From an uncultured Pseudomonadales bacterium (GTDB lineage Bacteria > Patescibacteriota > Microgenomatia > UBA1400 > PJMF01), in assembly GCA_964537665.1 (NCBI GenBank), contig CAZIBP010000002.1, forward strand, positions 1 to 58,365: a DNA stretch of 58,365 nucleotides, given 5' to 3'. This document shows, one piece after another, positions 4,068 to 57,110 of this stretch; the first letter of the stretch is position 1; the number at the start of each line of letters is the position of its first letter. The translations under genes were made by a program, and so were the position numbers. The notes under the pieces are model-generated. The model saw only the letters and a program-made list of their open reading frames with translations. It did no database searches and was not told the DNA's origin.

Positions 4068-4397
4068 ATGATTTATAAAATCTGGAAATTTAGTTTACTC
4101 GTTATCTTTCTCGCTGTTTTATTTCATTTTCTCAAGGACATCACTCAAGATATTTTTGGTCTTGCAACTGTTTTGGATAAATTTGGCAACATTGAAGAAG
4201 ATATTAGCTACTTTCCCATGTGGCTAACTTGGTTGTATCACTGGGCTTGGGTTAATGTCTTTTTTGCGGAAATTGCCATCGTCATAATAATTCCTTTAAA
4301 AATTAAAGAAAAAATCTTTACCAAAAAAGATTTGATGATAGCTGTTTGTTTGTTCTATTTAATTTTGATTATGGGGATTGCTTACTTTTTACAGTAG
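4068..4397 (+). CDS. Small integral membrane protein (3 predicted TM helices)
   Basis: Hydrophobic 109-aa ORF. Extended -10 TGcTAAGCT ends 6 nt before the ATG. Confidence 0.55.
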   Translation: MIYKIWKFSLLVIFLAVLFHFLKDITQDIFGLATVLDKFGNIEEDISYFPMWLTWLYHWAWVNVFFAEIAIVIIIPLKIKEKIFTKKDLMIAVCLFYLILIMGIAYFLQ

Positions 4398-4409
4398 CTT
4401 TTTGTTGCT

Positions 4410-7400
4410 ATGAATGAAGCCAAGTTAAACACAGAGAATACAAGCGCTGAATCTATTTCTCCAGCAGAAAGAAGTTTAAATCTGGTTTCTTTTCAGTCTT
4501 TAAGTGCCTTAGCATTAAAGAACCTGAGAACTAAACTACCCGAAGCCATGCAACAGGGTTTTCGTTTTACTTATATAGAAAACTCTAGAAATTTAGCATT
4601 AGCTCAGTCTTTGGTTAAAGGTGGTGATTTGTTAGGAGCGAAAGATGCTCTCACCAATATAGATATAGAAGAAATTTTTGAAGAAAAAGAATTATTAAAA
4701 TTAGTTGAACTTTATTTTCAAATTGGTGAAAAAGCAGAAGCTTTAAAGATAGCAGGCGAAATGATTGAAAATGAAAGAGGAATAAAAGCTGTTTTTTTGG
4801 CTGAAAATTTTATTGATCTTCTTTATGCTAATGGAGTTTTAGACCAAGATACAGCAATAAAAATCATTAGTAGTATTGAAAGCCAAGATGTCCAATTGAA
4901 TTTTATATATCGATATCTTAATAAGCAGAATGATGCCGACATTTATCAGCTTACAATTTCCATATTAAATAAAATTAAAATTTCACCAAGAAATCAAATA
5001 ACACTATGTCTTCGGGCAAAAGATATTTGTTTAAAAAATAATCAGATTGAGTGGGCTAAGGAAATGATTGATAAGGCTTTTAAAATTGTTGGTGATCTAG
5101 AGTTCTCAACGGCAAAATTCTATGCCATTTTTGATATAGCTACTGATCAAACTTCAGAAACCAAAATTATTTCTGCTGAAGAAGCTATTTCACAGATGAA
5201 AGAATTAATCAGAATAATTGAAAATAAAGAAGTTGAACCCCATGAAGTTTTCACTCATGGCGATGATGTCTCTCAAATTAATATGTATTTTGCGGAGTTT
5301 TTATTGAGAGAAGGTATGACTGCTGAAGCAGAGGTTGTTTTGGAAAAGATTTCCATGCCTGCTCAAAAAGAAAACACAATGCTGAGAATAGCTAGGCAGT
5401 ATGCAGAAAAAGGAGATAAAACTAGTGCTAAAAGACTAATTGCTGAAGCAGGAAAATTTGGTTGGGAAAACAATAGAGGGATTAATGGAAATGGTTATGG
5501 GTGGAATAAAGAAAATCCTCTCCCAGTTTCTATTGCCAAAACTCAGATGATAATTGGTGATTTAGAATCAGCTATTAGAACACTTGAAGGAATTATTCCA
5601 GGTCTCACAAAAGAGTTAAGTGAAGAAAAAAAGAGCAAAGAAAAAAGTTGGGTTGACGAATTATTGATAAGTGATGTTTCTAAAGAATTTAAATCAATTG
5701 GTGTTAATTACAATTACTTCCATCAAACTGTAGTGGAATTATTAAATGAGGGACATACCGAAAAAGCTATTTTACTTTTAACTAAGTATCCTGAATTCAT
5801 TGCAGCTATACCAGATAATTCGGAGCAAAGAATTGTTGCACTTGGTCAAATTACCGCTTTACAAATAAAACTTAAACAACCAATTACAACTAGTCTAATC
5901 TTAAGACACATAAGTTTTTCTTTGGACAAAGATGACTTTTTAAATCAAGAAAAAGAGCAAAATAACGAGCATACTCTTAAAAAATTAATTGCTATAGCCA
6001 AAATTCAATCAACTTTTCCAGACAAAAATGAATTAACTAAAACCTTGGAGATTGCTGAAAAATTCATCAATCAAGATTCTTCAAAAGATATTGTTGGAAT
6101 TATAATTGATATGGCAAAGCTTTGGCTTTTAGTTCCAGAAAAAAATAAGGCAATTGAGCAAGTTAATAGAGCTTTGCTAATTTGTGAATTTAACTTTAAT
6201 TTCGAAGAAAATTGTTCTCATAACGAAGCCCATTCGATTTTTCTAGCCAACAAAAAAAATTTATTGGAAATATATGAACTTTTTTTAAATTTAGGAGAAA
6301 AAGATAGGGCTTCTAAAGTGATTAAATATATAGCAATTTCCGTTATTAAATTTGAAAATGAAATTCAAAAACGAGAACAAAAGAAAACCAAGAACACCTT
6401 TATTTTAAAAAATTGGAATAACGAATGGCCACTTTCCAAAGATTGTTTTGAACTTAGTGAGTTGTTACTAAGTAATGGAGACATGACTGTTACTAGAGAG
6501 CTTATGTCTTTAGTTGCTCAAAAAATGCAAAGTGGTGTTTTTGACACAAGTAATTTCATCACTATAAATAAAAAAATAGTTAGTTTGTTGACTAGCAAAA
6601 AAGAATTGTTGTCTGAACAAATAGATTATAAATTACTTAAAGATAAAATCTTAATCAATGGACGCTTGAATGCACAGCTGCTCACTGAAGTTGGTTCTTT
6701 TGCTGAAAAAGATTCTATTGAGCAATTATTATCTTTAGTGCCTTCAGAGCAATTAAAATTAGCTAGACAGATTATCTATAGAAGTGCTGTAGAGAATGAG
6801 ACTGGCTTTTGGAGAGCCAACCAGGAATTGATTTCCAAAAGCACCCTTGCTTTGTTAACAGAAGCTATTGCTAATCAAAATATTGAAGAAGTAATGCTTG
6901 GCAAATATTTGTTAGGAACTATTAATTTGCTTAGCACTAAAGAAGCAAAAGACGCTTTGCTTGGAATTGCTAGAAGTTTAGCCAGCCAGGATAGCATTCA
7001 ATACGATCAATTCTTAAATCCTCATTTTATGAGGATTTTAAAAACTTTAGCAGAGTTAGACTCTTTTAGAGGAAATGATTTGATTTTTATTATTGCTGCT
7101 GATGAGAATCTTCCAGCTCATTATTCTAATTATTTATTTGGCAAACTTACAGAAAACAAATATTTGCAGTTTGATATTAATGACTGGCTTAGAAAAAGAA
7201 AAGGTAAAAGAACTGAGCGGGATAAAATTAGAGGTTGGGTTAGATTGCCAGCAGATCAAGAATTGAAGCAAGAAAGAATAGAATTAGCGGCGATTAAAAT
7301 GATTTGTAGATTGGGCGCTGCGCCTTCTTCCGACATATTGGATTATCTTCTAGATAGAGAAGAAACAGATCTCTACGAACTAACTTTAGAAGAGGTTGCC

Positions 7401-9269
7401 GAAAGAGTTAAGTTTTTGGAAGGATATAAACAAAAATTTGAAACTGTTGCAGATCAGAGTGAGTTGATAGCTCTTTTAACAAAAGATAAAAATGCTGCTT
7501 CAGCTTTTTACCTTTTAAATAATGGCAGAGTAACCTTTGATTTGGTGAACAATTACAGCTTTGATAAATTTAAAGAAATGCTAGAGTTAATTGGAAGATT
7601 GCAGATTCATGAGCAGCCAATATTGGAATTTAGAACAGCTTTGATTAATAGTGGCATGACCAGCGCACAGGCAGATCAAATAATTAGTAATCTTAAGCAT
7701 GGTTCTCCGCCTTTTGGTAAAAGTAGCGGTGAATTGATTAGATTAGATATTTCCGATACTACTAAGTTAAGAGACGCTAATAGAGAGCTGGCCGATGTTT
7801 TAGGCAGTGAGCAAATGGGCATTAGTTTCAAAGTTCCACAATATCGAAAATATTTGAATGCGAGCGATCATTTACAGGCTAAGAACTATCTCACAAAACT
7901 TATCAATGCTAACTCTTTGGCTGAGGCAACAAGATTAATCAAAGAAATTGAAAAGGTTTTCCCTGACTTTGAGACTCGTTTAATCTCCGATCTTAGTGAT
8001 AAATGGGATCATTTTAGAAAAAAAAGTATTTTGCCTCTCACCTTTGAAAGTATTTTGAAAAGTAGTTCTAATCCAGTGAATGGTGAAGAAGTTATTCAAG
8101 CTTTGGAACAAAATCGCTCAGCTTTGAAAAGAGCTAAAACAGATGTTATTGATGCTCTGAAACACGAAAATCCAGAGATTAAAAGGTTGCAAGCAGATCT
8201 TAAAAAGAAACAAGCTGTAAAAGAAAAACTAAAAGGTAATTTAGAAAAAAGTCCCAGCAATACTAGAATCATCGAGCAAATAGAGTCTATTGATAAAGAT
8301 TTAATTTTATTAGAACAAAATTTAAAACAAATTAAGACTAACCCAATTGCCCAAAGATATGATCATTTACCTGACCAGGAAAAAAGAGAATTGTTGGAAA
8401 AGACAAAAAAAGAACTCGAAGCACTATCACAAAAAGATTCTAGTCTAGTTTTGCTTGATATTATTGTCGAAATAATTGGGCTTGAAAATCTAAATGAAGG
8501 GGAGGTGGATTTAATTAAGGAAGTTGCTTCTCACTTAGAATCACCCATTCATGCTATTACCGATTTAGCTAAACTTGACGCTAGTTTTAGAAGAAAGCAA
8601 CGCAAAGAGGCAAGGTTGCGGCTTTTGGATAAAAAGGATGATCTGATTACCATGTTGAGATTTGCAGACTCAAAAATTTGCTGTTTTTCCAGTTCAAATT
8701 ATGAAATGAGAGTAGCTCATGGAATTCCAAATAAAGAATGGGTGGCCTCAATTAATAAAGATCCATTATCTTTCGTTTTTCAAATTGAAGAATTAAAAGA
8801 TAACGAAAATGATAAAACTAAAAACTTGGGCTTTGTTTTTGGTTCATTTGGTGTTTCAAGCGATGGTTTGCCAGTAGTTCTCTTAAATGGAATTTATTTT
8901 TCTGAAGGAAACGATTTAAAATCAGTTCAAAGTATTCTTCGCTCTGTTGAAAGTCAGTTATCTGCGCCGATCAAAGCACAATATCAGCTTTTGGCATCTA
9001 AATATGGTGGTTCACTGTCCGGTCAAATACCTGGCTATGATGGCAAAGCTGTGACGGTCAAAAGACTTAGAGCTTTAAAAGGCAAAGGAGATAAGCCAGA
9101 GACAATTATTTATGACGATCTTGGTACAGCTATTAATCAATTTCTTGATTATTCTGGTAGTAATAGTGTTACCCATAAACAGTTTGGTGAAAAAATTAAG
9201 CCAGCTAAACAATTTTATAATAGGTTTATGGCGAAGTTTGGCTCTCTAGTTCCAAGATTGAGTGCTTAA
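4410..9269 (+). CDS. Giant 1619-aa hypothetical protein: helical-repeat N-terminal half, coiled-coil region, unrecognised C-terminal domain
   Basis: Uninterrupted 4860-nt ORF in AT-rich DNA. No signal peptide or TM helices. TPR-like helical hairpins in the first ~900 aa. A K/E-rich heptad-like stretch around aa 1230-1330. Confidence 0.8.
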   Translation: MNEAKLNTENTSAESISPAERSLNLVSFQSLSALALKNLRTKLPEAMQQGFRFTYIENSRNLALAQSLVKGGDLLGAKDALTNIDIEEIFEEKELLKLVELYFQIGEKAEALKIAGEMIENERGIKAVFLAENFIDLLYANGVLDQDTAIKIISSIESQDVQLNFIYRYLNKQNDADIYQLTISILNKIKISPRNQITLCLRAKDICLKNNQIEWAKEMIDKAFKIVGDLEFSTAKFYAIFDIATDQTSETKIISAEEAISQMKELIRIIENKEVEPHEVFTHGDDVSQINMYFAEFLLREGMTAEAEVVLEKISMPAQKENTMLRIARQYAEKGDKTSAKRLIAEAGKFGWENNRGINGNGYGWNKENPLPVSIAKTQMIIGDLESAIRTLEGIIPGLTKELSEEKKSKEKSWVDELLISDVSKEFKSIGVNYNYFHQTVVELLNEGHTEKAILLLTKYPEFIAAIPDNSEQRIVALGQITALQIKLKQPITTSLILRHISFSLDKDDFLNQEKEQNNEHTLKKLIAIAKIQSTFPDKNELTKTLEIAEKFINQDSSKDIVGIIIDMAKLWLLVPEKNKAIEQVNRALLICEFNFNFEENCSHNEAHSIFLANKKNLLEIYELFLNLGEKDRASKVIKYIAISVIKFENEIQKREQKKTKNTFILKNWNNEWPLSKDCFELSELLLSNGDMTVTRELMSLVAQKMQSGVFDTSNFITINKKIVSLLTSKKELLSEQIDYKLLKDKILINGRLNAQLLTEVGSFAEKDSIEQLLSLVPSEQLKLARQIIYRSAVENETGFWRANQELISKSTLALLTEAIANQNIEEVMLGKYLLGTINLLSTKEAKDALLGIARSLASQDSIQYDQFLNPHFMRILKTLAELDSFRGNDLIFIIAADENLPAHYSNYLFGKLTENKYLQFDINDWLRKRKGKRTERDKIRGWVRLPADQELKQERIELAAIKMICRLGAAPSSDILDYLLDREETDLYELTLEEVAERVKFLEGYKQKFETVADQSELIALLTKDKNAASAFYLLNNGRVTFDLVNNYSFDKFKEMLELIGRLQIHEQPILEFRTALINSGMTSAQADQIISNLKHGSPPFGKSSGELIRLDISDTTKLRDANRELADVLGSEQMGISFKVPQYRKYLNASDHLQAKNYLTKLINANSLAEATRLIKEIEKVFPDFETRLISDLSDKWDHFRKKSILPLTFESILKSSSNPVNGEEVIQALEQNRSALKRAKTDVIDALKHENPEIKRLQADLKKKQAVKEKLKGNLEKSPSNTRIIEQIESIDKDLILLEQNLKQIKTNPIAQRYDHLPDQEKRELLEKTKKELEALSQKDSSLVLLDIIVEIIGLENLNEGEVDLIKEVASHLESPIHAITDLAKLDASFRRKQRKEARLRLLDKKDDLITMLRFADSKICCFSSSNYEMRVAHGIPNKEWVASINKDPLSFVFQIEELKDNENDKTKNLGFVFGSFGVSSDGLPVVLLNGIYFSEGNDLKSVQSILRSVESQLSAPIKAQYQLLASKYGGSLSGQIPGYDGKAVTVKRLRALKGKGDKPETIIYDDLGTAINQFLDYSGSNSVTHKQFGEKIKPAKQFYNRFMAKFGSLVPRLSA

Positions 9270-32645: not shown

Positions 32646-32666
32646 CCTTCTAATAATCCTATAATA

Positions 32667-32695
32667 TTGACAATTTGCAATTATAAATATATAAT
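32667..32695 (+). promoter_or_regulatory. Sigma70-type promoter TTGACA-N17-TATAAT; the start codon lies 8 nt after the -10 (near-leaderless)
   Basis: TTGACA at 32667-32672 and TATAAT at 32690-32695, with the ATG at 32704. It is preceded by a further ATCCTATAAT element at 32656-32665. Confidence 0.6.
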
Positions 32696-32703
32696 AGCCA
32701 ATC

Positions 32704-33396
32704 ATGAAAACTAATATGAAGAAAATCGTTTCTTATTTATTGATTTTAACTGGTTTCTTTTTGTTTTTTGCCAACGTGGCCAACGCTAAAGAATGTCAAA
32801 CCGTTTATGGTGGTGGTGAAGTCTGCGAAACTGGAGAACTCAGTTTAGACAAAAAAGTTTTTAACCCCAAAACCAATGAGTATTGGGATAATATTGACAG
32901 CAAGGACTACACTTTTGCTCCTAATGAAGAAGTGAAATTTAGTCTGCGTATCAAAAACATTTCCAATATCAAAGTTGATAGTGCTCGCATTAATGATGAC
33001 TTCGATCGCCTCGATGACTACATGGTTTTTGTCAGTAGTGATAAGGGTGACTATCGTGCTGAAGTAACAGATCACAAAGTTAAATTTGAATTTGGTGGAC
33101 TTGAGCCAGGTGCTGAGGCCACTGTTTATTTTGTTGCTCGTTTTAAACTCGAGGATAAATTGCCAGTTGGTACCACTTGTCTTACTAATGCCGCTCACGC
33201 TTATTCTCATGTTGACGCTGTAAGTGATAGTGATTACGCCACTTTTTGTGTCAAAACTGACAATGGTAAAATTGTGACCAAAAGCACTCCAGCTACTGGG
33301 CTTAATCTTGGCACAATCTTGGGTTTAGAAGCCTTAGCTTTTGCTGGACTTGGTTCTATAGCTTGGAGAAAAGCTAAGTTAATTATTAAAAAATAA
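32704..33396 (+). CDS. Cell-surface protein with signal peptide and C-terminal sortase-type sorting signal (PATG variant)
   Basis: Signal peptide (...FFANVANA|KE). C-terminus KSTPATG followed by a hydrophobic stretch and a WRKAKLIIKK tail. Confidence 0.75.
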   Translation: MKTNMKKIVSYLLILTGFFLFFANVANAKECQTVYGGGEVCETGELSLDKKVFNPKTNEYWDNIDSKDYTFAPNEEVKFSLRIKNISNIKVDSARINDDFDRLDDYMVFVSSDKGDYRAEVTDHKVKFEFGGLEPGAEATVYFVARFKLEDKLPVGTTCLTNAAHAYSHVDAVSDSDYATFCVKTDNGKIVTKSTPATGLNLGTILGLEALAFAGLGSIAWRKAKLIIKK

Positions 33397-33424
33397 TTCT
33401 TTTTTTGATTGAATTGAAATTGTA

Positions 33425-33450
33425 AACCCCGCCAAAAAGGCGGGGTTTTT
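33425..33450 (+). terminator. Intrinsic terminator
   Basis: AACCCCGCC-aaaaa-GGCGGGGTT followed by a T run. Confidence 0.8.
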
Positions 33451-33470
33451 GAATAGAATGTTGAGGCTTA

Positions 33471-33498
33471 TTGACTTTTTACAAAATTATCCTATAAT
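33471..33498 (+). promoter_or_regulatory. Sigma70-type promoter TTGACT-N16-TATAAT (second copy of the ATCCTATAAT module)
   Basis: TTGACT at 33471-33476 and TATAAT at 33493-33498. There is no ORF for ~200 nt downstream. Confidence 0.6.
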
Positions 33499-33706
33499 AT
33501 TTGTCATTGTTCCTAATCCAGATAAGAACAAAATTTAATTACTTGACTTTGCGTCTAGAAAATTGAATTTAGATCTGGCCGTACTTTAAAAAACTTGTCA
33601 AAATTGGAGCAACATTAAGGACACCTTTAATTTTTAGAGGTGTTTTTCATGTTGTTCCAATGCGCACGCGAGCAATCGCGTGTAGCCCACAAAAAAGAGG
33701 TTTGAA

Positions 33707-34177
33707 ATGAGTAACTTTTTACTCTCTGTTTGGTTTGTTTTGTCCATGTGGTTTGGCAGTCCCGCCCCAGCCACAGTCGCATTGTTGCCGGATAACGGCG
33801 ACGAGGCGATGAATATCCACACCAACGTTCGAATTTGGTCGCTGAGCGATCATGAAGTGGAAGTTGGCGCCTCTATCGGCATCCTGGAGCTTGTATGCTC
33901 TCAGAATGGTGAATCACCTGTTGATGGTTACACGCTTACCACTTCAGGTGGACAATCGGTAATTTATGTTTCCGATTGCGCTGATCTGATTTCAAGTGGC
34001 GGAGCCACTTATCAGGTCATCGAGACAGCCTTCCCGATGCTCGTTACTTGCAATGCTGACTGCGAGGTTTACACCTTGCACAAAACATTCGAAAGTGACG
34101 GGCTGACCCAGCAAGTGGGGAAAATCTGGGTCCGAGTCATTGGTCCAGATCCACAACTCATTGTGACTGGCAAGTAA
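33707..34177 (+). CDS. Hypothetical secreted protein, G+C-rich foreign-looking gene (ORF A)
   Basis: SD aagagg sits 8 nt upstream. N-terminal hydrophobic signal-like segment. About half G+C in the lines I counted. Terminator immediately downstream. Confidence 0.65.
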   Translation: MSNFLLSVWFVLSMWFGSPAPATVALLPDNGDEAMNIHTNVRIWSLSDHEVEVGASIGILELVCSQNGESPVDGYTLTTSGGQSVIYVSDCADLISSGGATYQVIETAFPMLVTCNADCEVYTLHKTFESDGLTQQVGKIWVRVIGPDPQLIVTGK

Positions 34178-34183
34178 GTATGG

Positions 34184-34212
34184 AAAGCGCGCCTCAAAAG
34201 GGCGCGCTTTTC
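34184..34212 (+). terminator. Intrinsic terminator
   Basis: AAAGCGCGCC-tcaaaag-GGCGCGCTTT followed by T. Confidence 0.75.
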
Positions 34213-34258
34213 TGTAGTCAAAACTACTTAGTTTCAAATTCTTATATATCCTATAATC

Positions 34259-34287
34259 TTGACAAAAGTGACTTATAGTGATATACT
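34259..34287 (+). promoter_or_regulatory. Sigma70-type promoter TTGACA-N17-TATACT (third copy of the ATCCTATAAT-TTGACA module)
   Basis: ATCCTATAAT at 34248-34257, TTGACA at 34259-34264 and TATACT at 34282-34287. Confidence 0.55.
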
Positions 34288-34293
34288 TTGTTC

Positions 34294-34689
34294 TAGTTAG
34301 GTAGGGAATGGCTTAACTAACAATAAATATTTCCCCTACTTGATCGACAGTTTCAACTGTCTTAACAACATAGTGTTTTTTGGCAGAGAAAAGGTTTCTG
34401 ACCGCTTGCTTCATTTCACCATTCCGAAATAAGCGATAAGTTGCCAGAGGCCTCCTCTCTGCTCGAGAGAGCAGAATGGTATCTCTAATGAGATATTGTC
34501 TCTAGGCGATAGCCGCTTAGCAGATGGTAATAAATCTCAATTAGAGACGCACTTTAACATTTGAAGAAGGATGCCTTTGGTATTTTGCCCAGCTTTTTTG
34601 CCCATCATTTTTTGGTGATCAGAAAAGCTGGGCTTTGATGCCGCAAGGCAAAGGAGTCGAACAAATTCACGCGCAAAGGAGATAAAATC
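34294..34689 (+). ncRNA. Candidate long structured 5' leader or ncRNA upstream of the lipoprotein ORF
   Basis: About 400 nt with no ORF of 60 aa or more in any frame between 34238 and 34604. At least seven hairpins, including a 7-bp stem with a GAGA loop (34458-34475), an 11-bp perfect stem (34587-34597 with 34623-34633) and a GCAA-capped stem (34639-34650). Confidence 0.35.
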
Positions 34690-35283
34690 ATGCGCAAAAT
34701 TACGTTCGTTATGTTCTTGGTCGTGGTGGTGAGCTTCGTGCTCGTCGCTTGCGGTTCTGCCGCACCGACCAACCTCAGCGCCGAGGATTTGGTGGCAACG
34801 CTCACCGCGATGCCCACCAACACCCTCTCGCCGACTTCCACCTCCGTGCCGACCAGCACTCCACTTCCTCCCACCAACACCCCGTTGCCTTCACCCACGT
34901 CTGTGCGCGATACCGGCATGCAGCTTAATACTGCCGCCGATATCCGCGTGCTCTTCGTGAAAGTGAATGGCTGGGTGAGCGGCGGCGAGGGTCAGTGGGT
35001 CGCTGGAGCCCAGGGCGCGCTTCGCAATGATCTTATCTTGAAGGACTTGCCCGAAGGGGCAACCTTTGAGTTTGAGTGTGTGCAATATCACACTCTTGGT
35101 GGCTCCATTGTCATCAAAAAGGTTTGCCCGAACGCGACCATCAGCTACAGCGAGGTCATCCCCGCTGGTAGTGTCGGCACGATGTGGTTGGATTGGGCGG
35201 TCATGCGCAATGGTGACAGGCTTGACGAGGATTTCCTCAACGAGCCTTGCGCTTGCCCTTCGGGCGATTGCCGCAAACCGTAA
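34690..35283 (+). CDS. Hypothetical lipoprotein with Pro/Thr-rich linker, G+C-rich foreign-looking gene (ORF B)
   Basis: SD aaggaga lies 7 nt upstream. Lipobox LVAC|GS, PT/S-rich linker and G/C-ending codons. Confidence 0.7.
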   Translation: MRKITFVMFLVVVVSFVLVACGSAAPTNLSAEDLVATLTAMPTNTLSPTSTSVPTSTPLPPTNTPLPSPTSVRDTGMQLNTAADIRVLFVKVNGWVSGGEGQWVAGAQGALRNDLILKDLPEGATFEFECVQYHTLGGSIVIKKVCPNATISYSEVIPAGSVGTMWLDWAVMRNGDRLDEDFLNEPCACPSGDCRKP

Positions 35284-35303
35284 CCTCTCCTTCCTCAAAT
35301 TGT

Positions 35304-35327
35304 CCGGCCTGGTTCAAACCAGGCCGG
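35304..35327 (+). terminator. Stable GC hairpin after ORF B (no U tract)
   Basis: CCGGCCTGG-ttcaaa-CCAGGCCGG, a 9-bp stem. The lack of a T run makes terminator function uncertain. Confidence 0.45.
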
Positions 35328-35397
35328 CAACCCAAAGATTTTGATTTAATTGATCTTCGAAATTTTTGAGTTGCGCCACACGTTTCAAATTTAAAAT

Positions 35398-36759
35398 ATG
35401 CAAAAAAAATCCCTTAAAACTTTGTTAAAAAGTTTTAATAAGGCTAATACTATTTTAGTTATTTCCAAATACCCTTATCAGAATATTGGGGAGTCTTTTC
35501 ATGGAGTAGCGGTTTACACCAGAGATACTTTGGAAACGATTGCTAAAAAAACTAAGCAAAAATTTGTAGTTTTAGTAGAGGCAAAATATGGTCGTGAAAT
35601 GGAGCTTAGAGCTAATGGTTCAGTTTTAATTTTGCCAGTTTTTGATAATCATCAAGTTTTAGTTTTCAAGCAATTATTGACTACTTTGAAAAATTTTAAT
35701 CAGGTTAAAAATATCCAATTGCATTCTGAATTCTACAATTCAGGTGACTTATTGCAAATGTCTTTGCTTTTGCCTTTTTTGTATTTGCTACGTTTGCAGG
35801 GCAAAATTGTTAGTTTTGTGGCCCACAACGTGGTTCATGATTTTGCTTTTTTGACCAATCATTTTGGCAAAGAAGCAACTGATTGGCGCTTTAATTTACT
35901 TTCTAAAGTTATTCCTTGGTATTATCGCTTCTTATCTTTGGGTGTAGAACAATTCATCACCTTAGATGAGAGCATCAGTGAGCGTTTGAGTTCTTATTTG
36001 TGGCAGAAAAATAAAGTTAAAAATACTGTAATTTGGCTAAAAAATAAAAAAATTACCCACAAAGAGAGAGTGATTGCTCGTCGCAAGCTTGCTTTAAATA
36101 GAGACGATCTTGTTTTGTCCGTTTTTGGTTTTATGAGTCGTTATAAGGGCGTGGATGTAGTTCTGCGTCATTTTTTACGTTTTAAAAAAGAATTTCCAAA
36201 TAGTAAATTTAAACTTTTATTAGCTGGTGGTATGGCTCCTTCACAAAAAAATCATGCTCATTATCAAAATTTTTATAAGGGTTTAGAAAACCTAGCAGCT
36301 AAGCATCAAGATATTACTTTAACTGGTTTTATTCCTTCAAATGAAGTTAAATCCTATATGGCTTTGACTGATGTGGTTTTATTGCCTTATCGCGGTATTT
36401 TGGGGGCTTCGGCTTCTTGGTCAACTGTTCTTAGTTATGGCAAAGCTTGTTTTTTTTCTAAAGCTCTTGAACCATATTTTATGGCAAGAGATGTAAAAAT
36501 TGCTTTGCTTAAATCTAGAATTAGCAAAGAAGAATTGATTTTTGGCAATAATTATCAGTCCTTTAGAAACTTACTTTTAAATTTGGAAGTTAACAATAAG
36601 TTATTAAATAAGTCTCTGATTTTTTCCAAGATTCTACGTTTTTCTAGAGACGAACGGGCTCGTGTCTTTCGTGATTTTCCACCTTTGTACTTTCCACGTT
36701 CTGCTGCTAAGACGGCTCAATCTTGCTATAATTTGAGTAATGAAGAAATTGCTGTCTAG
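35398..36759 (+). CDS. Glycosyltransferase, GT-B fold (GT1/GT4-like)
   Basis: The C-terminal half resembles the Glycos_transf_1 pattern (LSVFGFMSRYKG..., LLLAGG..., GFIPSNEVKSYMALTDVVLLPY). Confidence 0.7.
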   Translation: MQKKSLKTLLKSFNKANTILVISKYPYQNIGESFHGVAVYTRDTLETIAKKTKQKFVVLVEAKYGREMELRANGSVLILPVFDNHQVLVFKQLLTTLKNFNQVKNIQLHSEFYNSGDLLQMSLLLPFLYLLRLQGKIVSFVAHNVVHDFAFLTNHFGKEATDWRFNLLSKVIPWYYRFLSLGVEQFITLDESISERLSSYLWQKNKVKNTVIWLKNKKITHKERVIARRKLALNRDDLVLSVFGFMSRYKGVDVVLRHFLRFKKEFPNSKFKLLLAGGMAPSQKNHAHYQNFYKGLENLAAKHQDITLTGFIPSNEVKSYMALTDVVLLPYRGILGASASWSTVLSYGKACFFSKALEPYFMARDVKIALLKSRISKEELIFGNNYQSFRNLLLNLEVNNKLLNKSLIFSKILRFSRDERARVFRDFPPLYFPRSAAKTAQSCYNLSNEEIAV

Positions 36760-53647: not shown

Positions 53648-53718
53648 GGGCTCGTGTGCTGGTGCGCAGGTGAATCCGTGAAATTCATTCTTAGGGGGTT
53701 CGATTCCCCTCGAGTCCA
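53648..53718 (+). tRNA. tRNA-His(GUG)-like gene with non-canonical features
   Basis: Acceptor GGGCTCG/CGAGTCC, anticodon arm TGAAT-CCGTGAA-ATTCA (anticodon GTG) and T arm GGGGG-TTCGATT-CCCCT. However, the D region is only 16 nt, position -1 is A and the discriminator is A. Confidence 0.5.
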
Positions 53719-53825
53719 CAACAATATTTGATTCAGTAGTTTGTGTAAATTACATTTGCAAAAAGAAGTAAAATTTGGTATAAAATGGGTACACGGATTC
53801 ATCCTCGGGCAACCGAGAAGAATAA

Positions 53826-55300: not shown

Positions 55301-55509
55301 CATAATAAAAAGGATTGATATAATCTGCCATTAACCAAGTTTTCCTCAACTATTTTCAGGAAAATTTTCAAAGAACATTAAAAAACAAATTTTTCTCCTC
55401 AGTTTTTAATTTTTTAGTTTTTATTTTTTGAAAATTGAAGAGACCCTTTGTGGCTCAGACGCTTGCGTCTGAGTTTCGAAGGGAATAACGAAGAAAGGAG
55501 GATTGCATT

Positions 55510-55602
55510 ATGAGCGTTTGCGCTAAATGTGGCCAAAACCACAAGACGAAGAAATGCCCCAATGCTTTGGTGGCTTTCTTCAAACGCATCTTCGGCGTGT
55601 AA
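55510..55602 (+). CDS. Hypothetical 30-aa mini-protein with a CCHC knuckle-like motif (MSVCAKCGQNHKTKKCPNALVAFFKRIFGV)
   Basis: Strong SD aaaggagg (55494-55501) lies 8 nt upstream. An 11-bp-stem terminator starts 18 nt after the stop. This ORF is not in the supplied ORF track because it is too short. Confidence 0.4.
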   Translation: MSVCAKCGQNHKTKKCPNALVAFFKRIFGV

Positions 55603-55619
55603 CTCCACCTTCACCATCT

Positions 55620-55654
55620 GTCTCCGGCCCTTACGGGCCGGAGACAATCTTTTT
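55620..55654 (+). terminator. Intrinsic terminator
   Basis: GTCTCCGGCCC-ttac-GGGCCGGAGAC followed by aatcttttt. Confidence 0.75.
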
Positions 55655-55712
55655 AATTTGTTTTAAATTCCTCTACCTTTCTCCTCATTCCTCTCCTATA
55701 ATAGCGATCGTT

Positions 55713-57110
55713 ATGCAAAGAACCCTCGTCCTTGAATCACTTCAAAAAATTGGCCAGACCGTTACTTTATGTGGCTGGGTCGATAGCAAACGCGATCATG
55801 GTAAGGTTACCTTCATTGATTTGCGCGATCGTACTGGCAAAATTCAAGCTGTTGGCATTGGTGGAAAACTTAGTGAGTTGACCACTGAGTCAGTCATTGA
55901 AATCACTGGCCAGATTAATGCTCGCAATGAAAAATCTATCAATCCAAATTTACCAACTGGTAGTATCGAAATTTTTGTTGAGGCTTATAAAGTACTAAAC
56001 AAAGCTAGTGAGTTACCGATTTTGGTGGAAGGTGATGGTTTAGATGTTAACGAAGAAATGCGTTTGAAGTATCGTTATTTGGATTTGCGTCGAGCTAGAA
56101 TGCAAAAAATTGTGCGTTTACGTTCTAAATTTTATCAAGCATTACGTGAGCAACTTGAGAAAAAAGATTTTGTAGAGGTTGAAACTCCCATGTTGACCAA
56201 GTCAACCAAAGAAGGGGCTCGTGATTTTATTGTGCCTTCTCGTTTTAATCCTGGTAAATTTTATGCGCTACCTCAGAGTCCTCAGCAATACAAACAATTA
56301 CTGATGACTGCGGGTGTAGAGAATTATTATCAATTTGCTCGCTGTATTCGTGATGAGGATTTGCGAGCTGATCGTGGTTTTGAATTTACTCAACTTGATT
56401 TGGAAATGAGTTTTGTCACCCAAGAAGAAGTTATGGCTAATGTTGAAGACATTGTCAAAAATGCGGTCAAAAAAGTTGGTGGTAAATTACAGCAAGAGAC
56501 TTTTCCAGTGATTCAATATCAAGATGCTTTGGCTAAATATGGAGCTGATAAGTTTGATTTGCGCTCTCAGGAAGAGAAAGAAGCTGGGGTTTTGGCTTTT
56601 GCTTGGGTAGTTAATTTTCCATTCTTTAAAAAAGTTGACAAAAAAGATGTAGCTGAGGTTCGTGACGGTAAGAGTGGTTGGACTTTTACTCACAACCCAT
56701 TTTCTAGTCCTGTACCAGAATCGGCGCAAGATCATAAAAATGCCACCAACATTGAGAATATTATCACTGCTCAATATGATTTGGTTTGTAATGGTTATGA
56801 AGCTGGTGGAGGTAGCATTCGTGCCCATCAACCAGAGGTTTTGGAGCAAACCTTCAAGATCATGGGCTATTCACTCGAAGAAATTCAAAATAGCGTTGGC
56901 CACATGCTGGAAGCCTTTAAATTGGGGACTCCTCCACATGGAGGCATTGCTTTGGGTTTAGATCGCTTGGTGATGCTTCTTGCTGGAGAAAATTCCATCA
57001 AGGAAACCATTGCTTTCCCGATGACTTCCAGTGGCAAAACTGCCATTATGGATGCACCAAGTGAGGTTACAAGCGAACAACTTAAAGAGTTGGGGATTAG
57101 AATTGCTTGA
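55713..57110 (+). CDS. aspS: Aspartyl-tRNA synthetase, bacterial type lacking the GAD insertion domain
   Basis: OB-fold N-terminus (LCGWVDSKRDHGKVTFIDLRDRTG), motif 2 FARCIRDEDLRADRGFEFTQLDLEMSF and motif 3 GGIALGLDRLVML. Start at ATG 55713, 10 nt after TATAAT 55697-55702. The ORF-track extension from 55527 is rejected. Confidence 0.9.
   Translation: MQRTLVLESLQKIGQTVTLCGWVDSKRDHGKVTFIDLRDRTGKIQAVGIGGKLSELTTESVIEITGQINARNEKSINPNLPTGSIEIFVEAYKVLNKASELPILVEGDGLDVNEEMRLKYRYLDLRRARMQKIVRLRSKFYQALREQLEKKDFVEVETPMLTKSTKEGARDFIVPSRFNPGKFYALPQSPQQYKQLLMTAGVENYYQFARCIRDEDLRADRGFEFTQLDLEMSFVTQEEVMANVEDIVKNAVKKVGGKLQQETFPVIQYQDALAKYGADKFDLRSQEEKEAGVLAFAWVVNFPFFKKVDKKDVAEVRDGKSGWTFTHNPFSSPVPESAQDHKNATNIENIITAQYDLVCNGYEAGGGSIRAHQPEVLEQTFKIMGYSLEEIQNSVGHMLEAFKLGTPPHGGIALGLDRLVMLLAGENSIKETIAFPMTSSGKTAIMDAPSEVTSEQLKELGIRIA

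Follow-up and report, generated by a model that had tools for sequence, protein, structure and literature searches.

Why are two adjacent genes G+C-rich in a genome that is otherwise rich in A+T? The question is raised by a 58,365-nt stretch of DNA (the whole stretch that was analyzed, hereafter the window), which has a G+C content of 35.6% and is chromosomal, since it carries the genes for RecA, DnaG, MetRS, G6PD/6PGD, and thioredoxin reductase. The initial annotation described a G+C-rich stretch at about 33650–35335, with two open reading frames (ORFs), as a two-gene island of genes recently acquired from a high-GC donor. The G+C-rich stretch is confirmed both by sliding-window G+C and by G+C at third codon positions (GC3). 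Among segments of 1700 bp, the peak starts at 33651 (fractional G+C content, GC, of 0.497, about 4.5 standard deviations over the mean), and among segments of 600 bp it lies at 34726–35325 (0.593, about 6 standard deviations over the mean). ORF A (33707–34177) has a GC of 0.495 and a GC3 of 0.522, and ORF B (34690–35283) has a GC of 0.584 and a GC3 of 0.707. Measured against the 50 other ORFs of the window (GC3 0.295 ± 0.045), their GC3 z-scores are 5.1 and 9.2, so both genes have the atypical composition by which genomic islands are recognized. The explanation that we favor, with moderate confidence, is that these are two independent units encoding exported proteins, and that their G+C richness, especially at synonymous sites, is kept by selection for heavily base-paired transcripts.

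The place of ORF B was compared in relatives, whose loci are given L numbers. The gene order EamA, DUF4430, DUF6580, sortase, sortase substrate, slot, GT1, a membrane protein of about 1070 aa, and DnaG is conserved, and at least 15 independently assembled relatives have a lipoprotein gene at this point of the order, the slot. A gene of the ORF B family lies directly upstream of GT1 in L001–L004, L006–L010, L012–L014, L018–L020, L023, and L027. The slot genes have GC of 0.48–0.60 and GC3 of 0.41–0.71, while the GC3 of the neighboring genes is 0.21–0.37. The same contrast is seen even in lineages in which GT1 is only 69–73% identical. Across the loci, GT1 proteins are 69–86% identical and ORF B proteins only 40–80%. 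Homologues of ORF B are few: a profile search of 1.84 billion representatives gave about 12 clusters of the ORF B domain family, with a C-terminal domain of about 120–125 aa. Of the 13 proteins that matched, the gene context was read for eight, other than P0015, P0017–P0021, and P0023; seven are in the slot, and the sole exception, P0022, is a distant relative located beside GroEL on a contig of 44% G+C. The initial annotation had itself named occurrence at the same position throughout sister genomes as the finding that would speak against recent acquisition, and for ORF B this is what we see, with the same position and G+C contrast in every relative found. From these comparisons, the ORF B slot is best explained as belonging to a conserved cell-envelope locus, where it is resident and passed on vertically.

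The G+C-rich stretch is not a single unit. ORF A and ORF B form separate transcription units with a promoter each, and the AT-richer 500 bp between them are the ORF B leader. The ratio of nonsynonymous to synonymous divergence is abbreviated dN/dS, and the Shine–Dalgarno sequence SD. The features are as follows.

33427–33450, forward strand: terminator hairpin and T run of the sortase-substrate gene, read from the sequence, with an equivalent hairpin in sister loci; left edge of the variable intergenic slot.
33470–34216, forward strand: ORF A cassette, 747 bp from −35 box to terminator, bounded by the edges of homology with L005 and absent from sister loci.
33471–33498, forward strand: promoter-like site of ORF A, TTGACT, 16 nt, TATAAT, with 11/12 matches; kept in L005 and L011.
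33505–33706, forward strand: predicted structured 5′ leader of ORF A, from its folding z-score, with a terminator-like hairpin at 33617–33652 and an SD at 33695–33700.
33707–34177, forward strand: ORF A, 156 aa, with a hydrophobic N-terminus and four conserved Cys, predicted to be all-beta; dN/dS about 0.2.
34185–34213, forward strand: terminator of ORF A, a G+C-rich hairpin with a T run, read from the sequence and kept in L005 and L011 with compensatory changes.
34259–34287, forward strand: promoter-like site of ORF B, TTGACA, 17 nt, TATACT, with TG and 11/12 matches; kept in sister loci.
34292–34689, forward strand: predicted structured leader of ORF B, about 400 nt, from folding and covariation, with its core at about 34450–34660 and the SD (34676–34681) at its end.
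34690–34752, forward strand: signal peptide of ORF B and lipobox LVAC with Cys21, conserved in homologues; contains a covarying RNA hairpin.
34753–34905, forward strand: linker of ORF B, rich in Pro, Thr, and Ser; the exchangeable segment has its left edge near 34820.
34906–35283, forward strand: C-terminal domain of ORF B, about 125 aa with five conserved Cys, ending in PCxCxxGDCR, plus the stop codon; variable cargo.
35304–35327, forward strand: G+C-rich hairpin 3′ of the ORF B stop, without a clean T run, maintained in sister loci by compensatory changes; the exchangeable segment has its right edge here.

What is conserved in the slot, and what varies? The 5′ module of promoter, leader, SD, and signal peptide with lipobox is conserved, and the mature part of the protein varies. 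Loci L001 and L007 are 98–99% identical in the leader, the signal peptide, and GT1, where the synonymous divergence (dS) is 0.02. Over the stretch that begins about 130 nt inside the gene and ends shortly after the stop, they are only about 65–70% identical (dS about 1, nonsynonymous divergence 0.19), and the identity is back to 98–99% at the hairpin corresponding to 35304–35327. The pattern is that of a sharp-edged replacement of the mature-protein segment. A scan of metagenomes with the leader motif found seven true loci, all in the same syntenic slot; two have cargo of the ORF B type, one has a distant relative, and four have an unrelated C-terminal domain. The distant relative ('type 3', L024) is connected to the ORF B domain by hhalign with E = 7.6e-5, whereas the 'type 2' domain of L021, L025, L026, and L028 is unrelated to it (hhalign probability 0.04%). 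Type 2 cargo follows the same leader and SD, with a similar signal peptide, lipobox, and linker modules, and linker modules are common to different cargo types. The lipoboxes of the other cargo types are LAAC, LSAC, or LAGC. All of the cargo genes at these loci are G+C-rich, 0.48–0.55, compared to 0.28–0.34 in their flanks. None of the cargo types has a second copy in the 58-kb window. A diversity-generating retroelement target was considered and rejected, as there is no repeat of the variable region in the window, and the divergence extends over about 470 bp with indels and all types of substitution. No reverse transcriptase was found among the window ORFs that were scanned, which were a part of all the ORFs.

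The coding sequences of the two genes pair with themselves more than expected. With dinucleotide shuffles as the reference, the folding z-scores are −7.4 for ORF B and −6.3 for ORF A, whereas 25 of 26 other genes of the window have z-scores between +1.1 and −3.1; the remaining gene, an ORF called at 55527 with z = −4.9, is explained by a mis-called, over-extended start. All 13 homologues of the two families that were tested gave z-scores of −3.8 to −12.5, and the unrelated type 2 cargo behaves alike. With synonymous-codon shuffles, which preserve both the protein and the codon usage, the z-scores are −5.6 for ORF B and −5.1 for ORF A. All island-type genes fall between −2.9 and −12.3 in this comparison, and the control genes, which include a GroEL gene of 50% G+C, fall between +1.0 and −2.4. 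Even when codons are shuffled only within 30-codon blocks, which alters about 13% of the bases, the z-scores are still −4.4 to −9.0 (ORF B −4.8, ORF A −4.4). Furthermore, in an alignment of seven sequences, 89% of the cells are paired, compared to 38–48% in slid controls, and 28 pairs are changed on both sides, compared to 14.8 ± 2.4 in shuffles (none of 500 reached 28) and 4–8 in slid controls. Perfect Watson–Crick hairpins are enriched only in some members; the signal is one of overall pairing, including G–U pairs, and not of DNA palindromes. Invariant G–U pairs favor pairing at the RNA level. Raw folding energies of sense and antisense strands were rejected as a test of RNA-level against DNA-level pairing, since the control genes are equally biased.

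The leader of ORF B is also strongly folded, with z = −8.6 against dinucleotide shuffles. It is conserved over about 300–400 nt in at least 13 loci with covarying helices, and it is far better conserved than the ORF B coding sequence. The upstream part of the leader in L019 is near-identical to that in the window, despite a protein identity of 41%. A covarying hairpin is located within the signal-peptide codons themselves (pair columns 417–437 of alignment A10; helix 2 of alignment A8). A search of 33400–35400 against Rfam 15 gave no match at the gathering score, the best sub-threshold E values being 0.2–0.5, and the leader is a candidate new cis-acting RNA outside Rfam. Ahead of the ORF B promoter is a ATCCTATAAT box, and the same box is found at the promoter of the substrate gene. 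This 10-mer has exactly three copies in 58 kb (within 32656–32695, 33489–33498, and 34248–34287), which precede three consecutive genes, those of the substrate, ORF A, and ORF B. Two of the three copies are in a common promoter module, TCCTATAAT-N-TTGACA-N17-TATAAT. The copies around ORF A were rejected as a target-site duplication, since they are promoter boxes that are found also in sister loci without the insertion.

What kind of protein does ORF B encode? The N-terminus, MRKITFVMFLVVVVSFVLVA, has a positively charged n-region and a hydrophobic core, and the same pattern is seen in all homologues. In the lipobox, L18-V-A-C21, the residues L18, A20, and C21 are invariant in alignment A2. The product has the signal peptide and the lipobox expected of a bacterial lipoprotein, and is predicted to be one. 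Together with the hydrophobic N-terminus of ORF A, these features make the products of both ORFs look exported. Both ORFs are coding, because dN/dS is about 0.2 for each (0.17–0.22 for ORF B, which has in-frame indels and a conserved lipobox and Cys residues), and both are under purifying selection. The initial annotation had described the lipobox, the Pro/Thr (PT) linker, and the Cys-containing C-terminal domain of ORF B, all of which are present and conserved in homologues, and it was right about the hydrophobic, signal-like N-terminus of ORF A. It had recognized neither protein family, and our searches agree: neither ORF B nor ORF A matched anything over noise in Pfam, NCBIfam, PHROGs, or the PDB sequences. 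One word-indexed homology search was swamped by the low-complexity linker, and little was gained from it.

In contrast to ORF B, ORF A does belong to an insertion. ORF A is a separate mobile cassette that has landed in an intergenic hot spot directly upstream of the slot. Of the two genes called inserted at the outset, the term holds for ORF A, since sister loci exist without the cassette, and not for ORF B, which is resident in relatives. The cassette corresponds to L005 9776–10524 with 72% nucleotide identity; the homology is confined to 33470–34216 of the window, and the flanks are unrelated. Homologues of ORF A form only two clusters among 5.8 billion proteins, with 60–65% protein identity, and all are in a different AT-rich genome (L005, L011, and L029–L031). 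The GC of the genomes of these relatives is about 0.34–0.39, and there too the ORF A relatives are locally G+C-elevated. In L029, and also in L030 and L031, an ORF A-type cassette with a 3′ tail of about 200 nt lies between imperfect direct repeats of about 90 bp that are 78% identical (1436–1526 and 2435–2524 in L029), which suggests site-specific insertion there. No such direct repeats flank ORF A in the window. The initial annotation reported no integrase, transposase, or flanking repeat, and we likewise found no integrase, transposase, tRNA site, or flanking direct repeats around 33400–35400. No attC-like site, integrase, transposase, or target-site duplication for ORF A was found in the window. 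An integron gene cassette was rejected as an identity for ORF A, which has its own promoter with 11/12 matches and an intrinsic terminator, with no integrase in the window. No viral contigs carrying the ORF A leader motif or the ORF B protein profile were found in the scans.

The leader of ORF A has a folding z-score of −6.5 against dinucleotide shuffles, and its hairpins are maintained in L005 and L011 by compensatory changes; it has no family in Rfam. Within it, at 33617–33652, a longer stem encloses a 14-bp hairpin and the T run that follows it. An equivalent hairpin is present in L005 and L011, with compensatory changes, and this element may act to attenuate transcription. L005 and L011 differ in ORF A mainly in the 5′ two-thirds, with dS of 0.66 there and 0.02 in the 3′ part. 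ORF A is not the only gene to have entered this neighborhood. The same intergenic region in L019 (2982–5423) contains an AbiEii-family toxin gene, a DUF1016/YhcG nuclease-like gene, and two small ORFs. In L013, a G+C-rich ORF of 103 aa (8473–8784, GC 0.54, folding z −1.3) is located between the sortase and the substrate, bracketed by ATCCTATAGT/ATCCTATAAC promoter boxes. Thus, with ORF A here, AbiEii and DUF1016 in L019, and the small ORF in L013, the neighborhood gathers accessory genes. A further small G+C-rich ORF in L013, at 4278–4634 on the reverse strand, encodes a lipoprotein of 118 aa (folding z −3.4). As a separate observation, a 37-nt element at 1941–2000 on the reverse strand of the window is 84% identical to L005 10668–10704, beside the ORF A-type cassette of that unrelated genome. 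This element, for which there is no Rfam or tRNA call, is possibly a small repeat or an RNA element.

The two units also differ from the rest of the window in their translation signals. An SD is present in only about six of 52 window genes, as the initial annotation had noted in saying that many native genes have none, and many genes have TATAAT 6–12 nt 5′ of the start codon, such as 32690–32695 ahead of the ATG at 32704. The scarcity of SDs and the position of these TATAAT boxes indicate that the mRNAs of this organism are mostly leaderless. ORF A and ORF B are atypical in having an SD plus a long leader within a largely leaderless genome. The SDs, AAGAGG at 33695–33700 for ORF A and AAGGAG at 34676–34681 for ORF B, were seen in the initial annotation, as were the hairpins 3′ of both stops, which we find at 34185–34213 and 35304–35327. 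The clade of AT-rich bacteria with mostly leaderless mRNAs is probably Patescibacteria. A further small G+C-rich, SD-led unit is located at 55440–55665, with AAGGAGG, a Cys-containing ORF of 30 aa (55510–55602, MSVCAKCGQNHKTKKCPNALVAFFKRIFGV), and a strong terminator hairpin at about 55612–55650. The class II aminoacyl-tRNA synthetase downstream has its probable leaderless start at 55714, after TATAAT at 55697–55702, which makes the ORF called at 55527–57110 too long at its 5′ end; a folding z of −5.4 was obtained for its first 240 nt. Elsewhere, ARAGORN calls an atypical tRNA-His at 53648–53719, which scores 26.9 bits, compared to a gathering score of 29 for the Rfam tRNA family.

Where does the G+C richness come from? 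A recent origin of both genes in a high-GC donor (Chloroflexota or Actinomycetota, for example), without amelioration so far, would account for GC3 z-scores of 5 and 9, for the SD and leader that distinguish ORF A and ORF B from native genes, and for the lack of ORF A in sister genomes. The PT-linker style of lipoprotein is also found elsewhere: the 65 N-terminal residues of ORF B have a weak match (E 6.5e-4, well short of the cut-off) to the Rcas_1661 lipoprotein family, and the PT linker matches P0007 and P0008. However, the position of ORF B in the slot and its contrast in G+C are common to all relatives, including those with GT1 identity as low as 69%; neither of the searches, of 5.8 billion and 1.84 billion proteins, found any donor-side homologue, and the only relatives of ORF A are likewise in AT-rich genomes. 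An unrelated domain in the slot is just as G+C-rich. A recent high-GC donor, as first proposed, is therefore quite improbable. An assembly chimera of high-GC reads with an AT-rich contig would explain the abrupt change in composition, but the ORF B junctions recur in independent ENA, NCBI, JGI, and Logan assemblies from many samples, the AT-rich promoter and leader of ORF A are continuous with its coding region, and the cassette recurs within AT-rich flanks elsewhere; we consider a chimera excluded for ORF B and very improbable for ORF A. The import could instead be ancient, a single event in the ancestor of the clade from a very high-GC donor, followed by slow and incomplete amelioration, with the RNA structure incidental. 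The range of GC3 among lineages, from 0.71 down to 0.41, a lean of polarised synonymous changes from G/C to A/T (12:5), and the foreign style of expression suggested by the SD and leader all fit this history. It does not explain why GC3 is 0.58–0.71 in alleles whose proteins are only 41% identical, although their synonymous sites are saturated (dS about 1 or more), or why the unrelated type 2 domain in the slot is just as G+C-rich. Nor is the pairing excess over protein-preserving shuffles expected from composition alone. The GroEL control with 50% G+C shows no such excess, and the same syndrome in ORF A is left unexplained. We regard an ancient import as unlikely, while giving it some weight.

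Two further explanations, both less likely, start from the recombination at the slot. Foreign G+C-rich lipoprotein domains might have been captured serially from an unsampled pool, such as a host organism, with the conserved leader and signal peptide on one side and the 3′ hairpin on the other serving as recombination arms. The mosaic edges are indeed sharp, there are at least two unrelated cargo domains that are all G+C-rich, and the upstream intergenic region collects accessory genes (ORF A, and AbiEii and DUF1016 in L019). On the other hand, the ORF B-type homologues of known context are all in the slot of this clade except P0022, whose 44% G+C contig is not high-GC, the linker modules shared by cargo types point to exchange within the clade, and the pairing excess over synonymous shuffles is not accounted for. 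Such captures have only a small probability in our judgment. GC-biased gene conversion at a recombination hot spot would raise the G+C of the exchanged segment, and the G+C-rich segment does coincide with the recombining one; ORF A is mosaic too, with the dS of 0.66 and 0.02 in the 5′ and 3′ parts of L005 and L011. But a shift in GC3 from about 0.27 to 0.7 far exceeds the effects reported for bacteria, the polarised changes lean toward A/T, and conversion does not predict position-specific synonymous choices that raise pairing. This makes conversion hardly probable as the cause.

The explanation that we favor, selection for base pairing, is modeled as follows. One unit comprises the promoter, the structured leader of about 400 nt, the SD, ORF B, and the 3′ hairpin. 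Its 5′ module is constant, and its mature part is swapped between lineages, by homologous recombination with crossover points in the early linker and just 3′ of the stop codon. The other unit is the 747-bp promoter-to-terminator cassette of ORF A, landed upstream of the slot. The G+C richness would be held up by selection on pairing and would not be the remnant of a high-GC donor. The likeliest benefit would be a long-lived or tightly regulated mRNA, or regulated translation, for an abundant or variable surface protein. Several points weigh against this explanation. The structures are predictions, and the structure used in the covariation test was derived from the same alignment that it tested. 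The consensus fold is only −60 kcal/mol, compared to about −260 kcal/mol for the individual folds, implying that most of the pairing is lineage-specific and not positionally conserved. The raw energies of sense and antisense strands do not separate RNA-level from DNA-level pairing, the same bias being present in controls. The AlphaFold2 models of the two proteins, with pLDDT of 35 and 38, were unusable. GC3 is as low as 0.41–0.46 in some lineages, and this, with the 12:5 lean of polarised synonymous changes, would be consistent with the partial amelioration of an old import. These counts are very small, and they were rejected as a test of maintenance against amelioration for being too few and biased by parsimony.

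It is also conceivable, and we put it forward tentatively, that the whole slot transcript, from leader through coding sequence, is a structured RNA with two functions and a fold selected for its own sake, and that the same holds for the ORF A cassette. The fold might then, as a similarly speculative extension, act as a regulatory or protective RNA, or as a recognition unit for cassette exchange. If this were so, selection on the fold would create a persistent G+C island in an AT-rich genome with leaderless mRNAs, while the encoded domain stays swappable.

Does the locus resemble any known system? Expression sites for variable surface lipoproteins are known from the vlp/vsp genes of Borrelia hermsii, with their upstream and downstream homology sequences, and from the vsa, vlp, and vsp genes of Mycoplasma. 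In these, as in the slot, one expression site holds the promoter, the 5′ end, and the lipoprotein signal peptide, the mature part is replaced by recombination with crossovers near the end of the signal peptide and just past the stop, and unrelated cargo families are found behind one 5′ module. The conserved 5′ and 3′ blocks around an exchangeable segment that are typical of vlp/vsp or vsa sites were found here, as seen in the L001/L007 mosaic and the cargo types. In contrast to those sites, the slot is seen to vary between lineages and not inside one genome, and no silent cassettes, repeats, or site-specific recombinase were found in the 58-kb window. Neither the Borrelia nor the Mycoplasma sites are known to have a long conserved structured leader or G+C-rich, hyper-paired coding sequences. 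By analogy, the slot may work like these sites; we do not claim that it is one of them, since silent cassettes and a recombinase were not found in the window.

The E. coli lpp mRNA, and the long 5′ untranslated regions of ompA and S-layer genes, are examples of unusually stable, structured mRNAs for envelope proteins. The slot is similar in that the mRNA of a lipoprotein or surface protein is predicted to form extensive hairpins and to have a long 5′ leader that may protect it, and this likeness provides a rationale for selection on pairing. It differs in that the predicted pairing is far more extreme, spans a coding sequence of 600 nt, comes with a compositional island (a 20-point shift in G+C from the genome), and is retained while the encoded domain is swapped. 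The large non-coding RNAs OLE, GOLLD, and ROOL were found as G+C-rich islands in AT-rich genomes, and here too strong RNA structure with covariation is found where the G+C content of an AT-rich genome is locally raised. Unlike these RNAs, the island is mostly protein-coding, as shown by the dN/dS of about 0.2, the lipobox, the Cys residues, and the in-frame indels, and has no match in Rfam. ORF A is like the units of genomic islands and integron cassettes in being small and discrete, in its occurrence at different sites and absence from close relatives, and in the direct repeats that bracket the ORF A-type unit in another host. In contrast to them, it is only 747 bp and has its own promoter and terminator. 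We found no description of this locus or phenomenon in the literature.

These results are a caution for calls of horizontal transfer, because the strong anomaly in G+C and codon usage here is a stable, inherited property of the locus, apparently tied to RNA structure. The leader RNA of about 300 nt, which is absent from Rfam, is a candidate new RNA. The two genes may also serve as an extreme test case of coding genes whose synonymous sites seem to be dominated by selection on base pairing. Finally, with the slot, an expression site for polymorphic surface lipoproteins is described from a clade of bacteria with small genomes, probably Patescibacteria.

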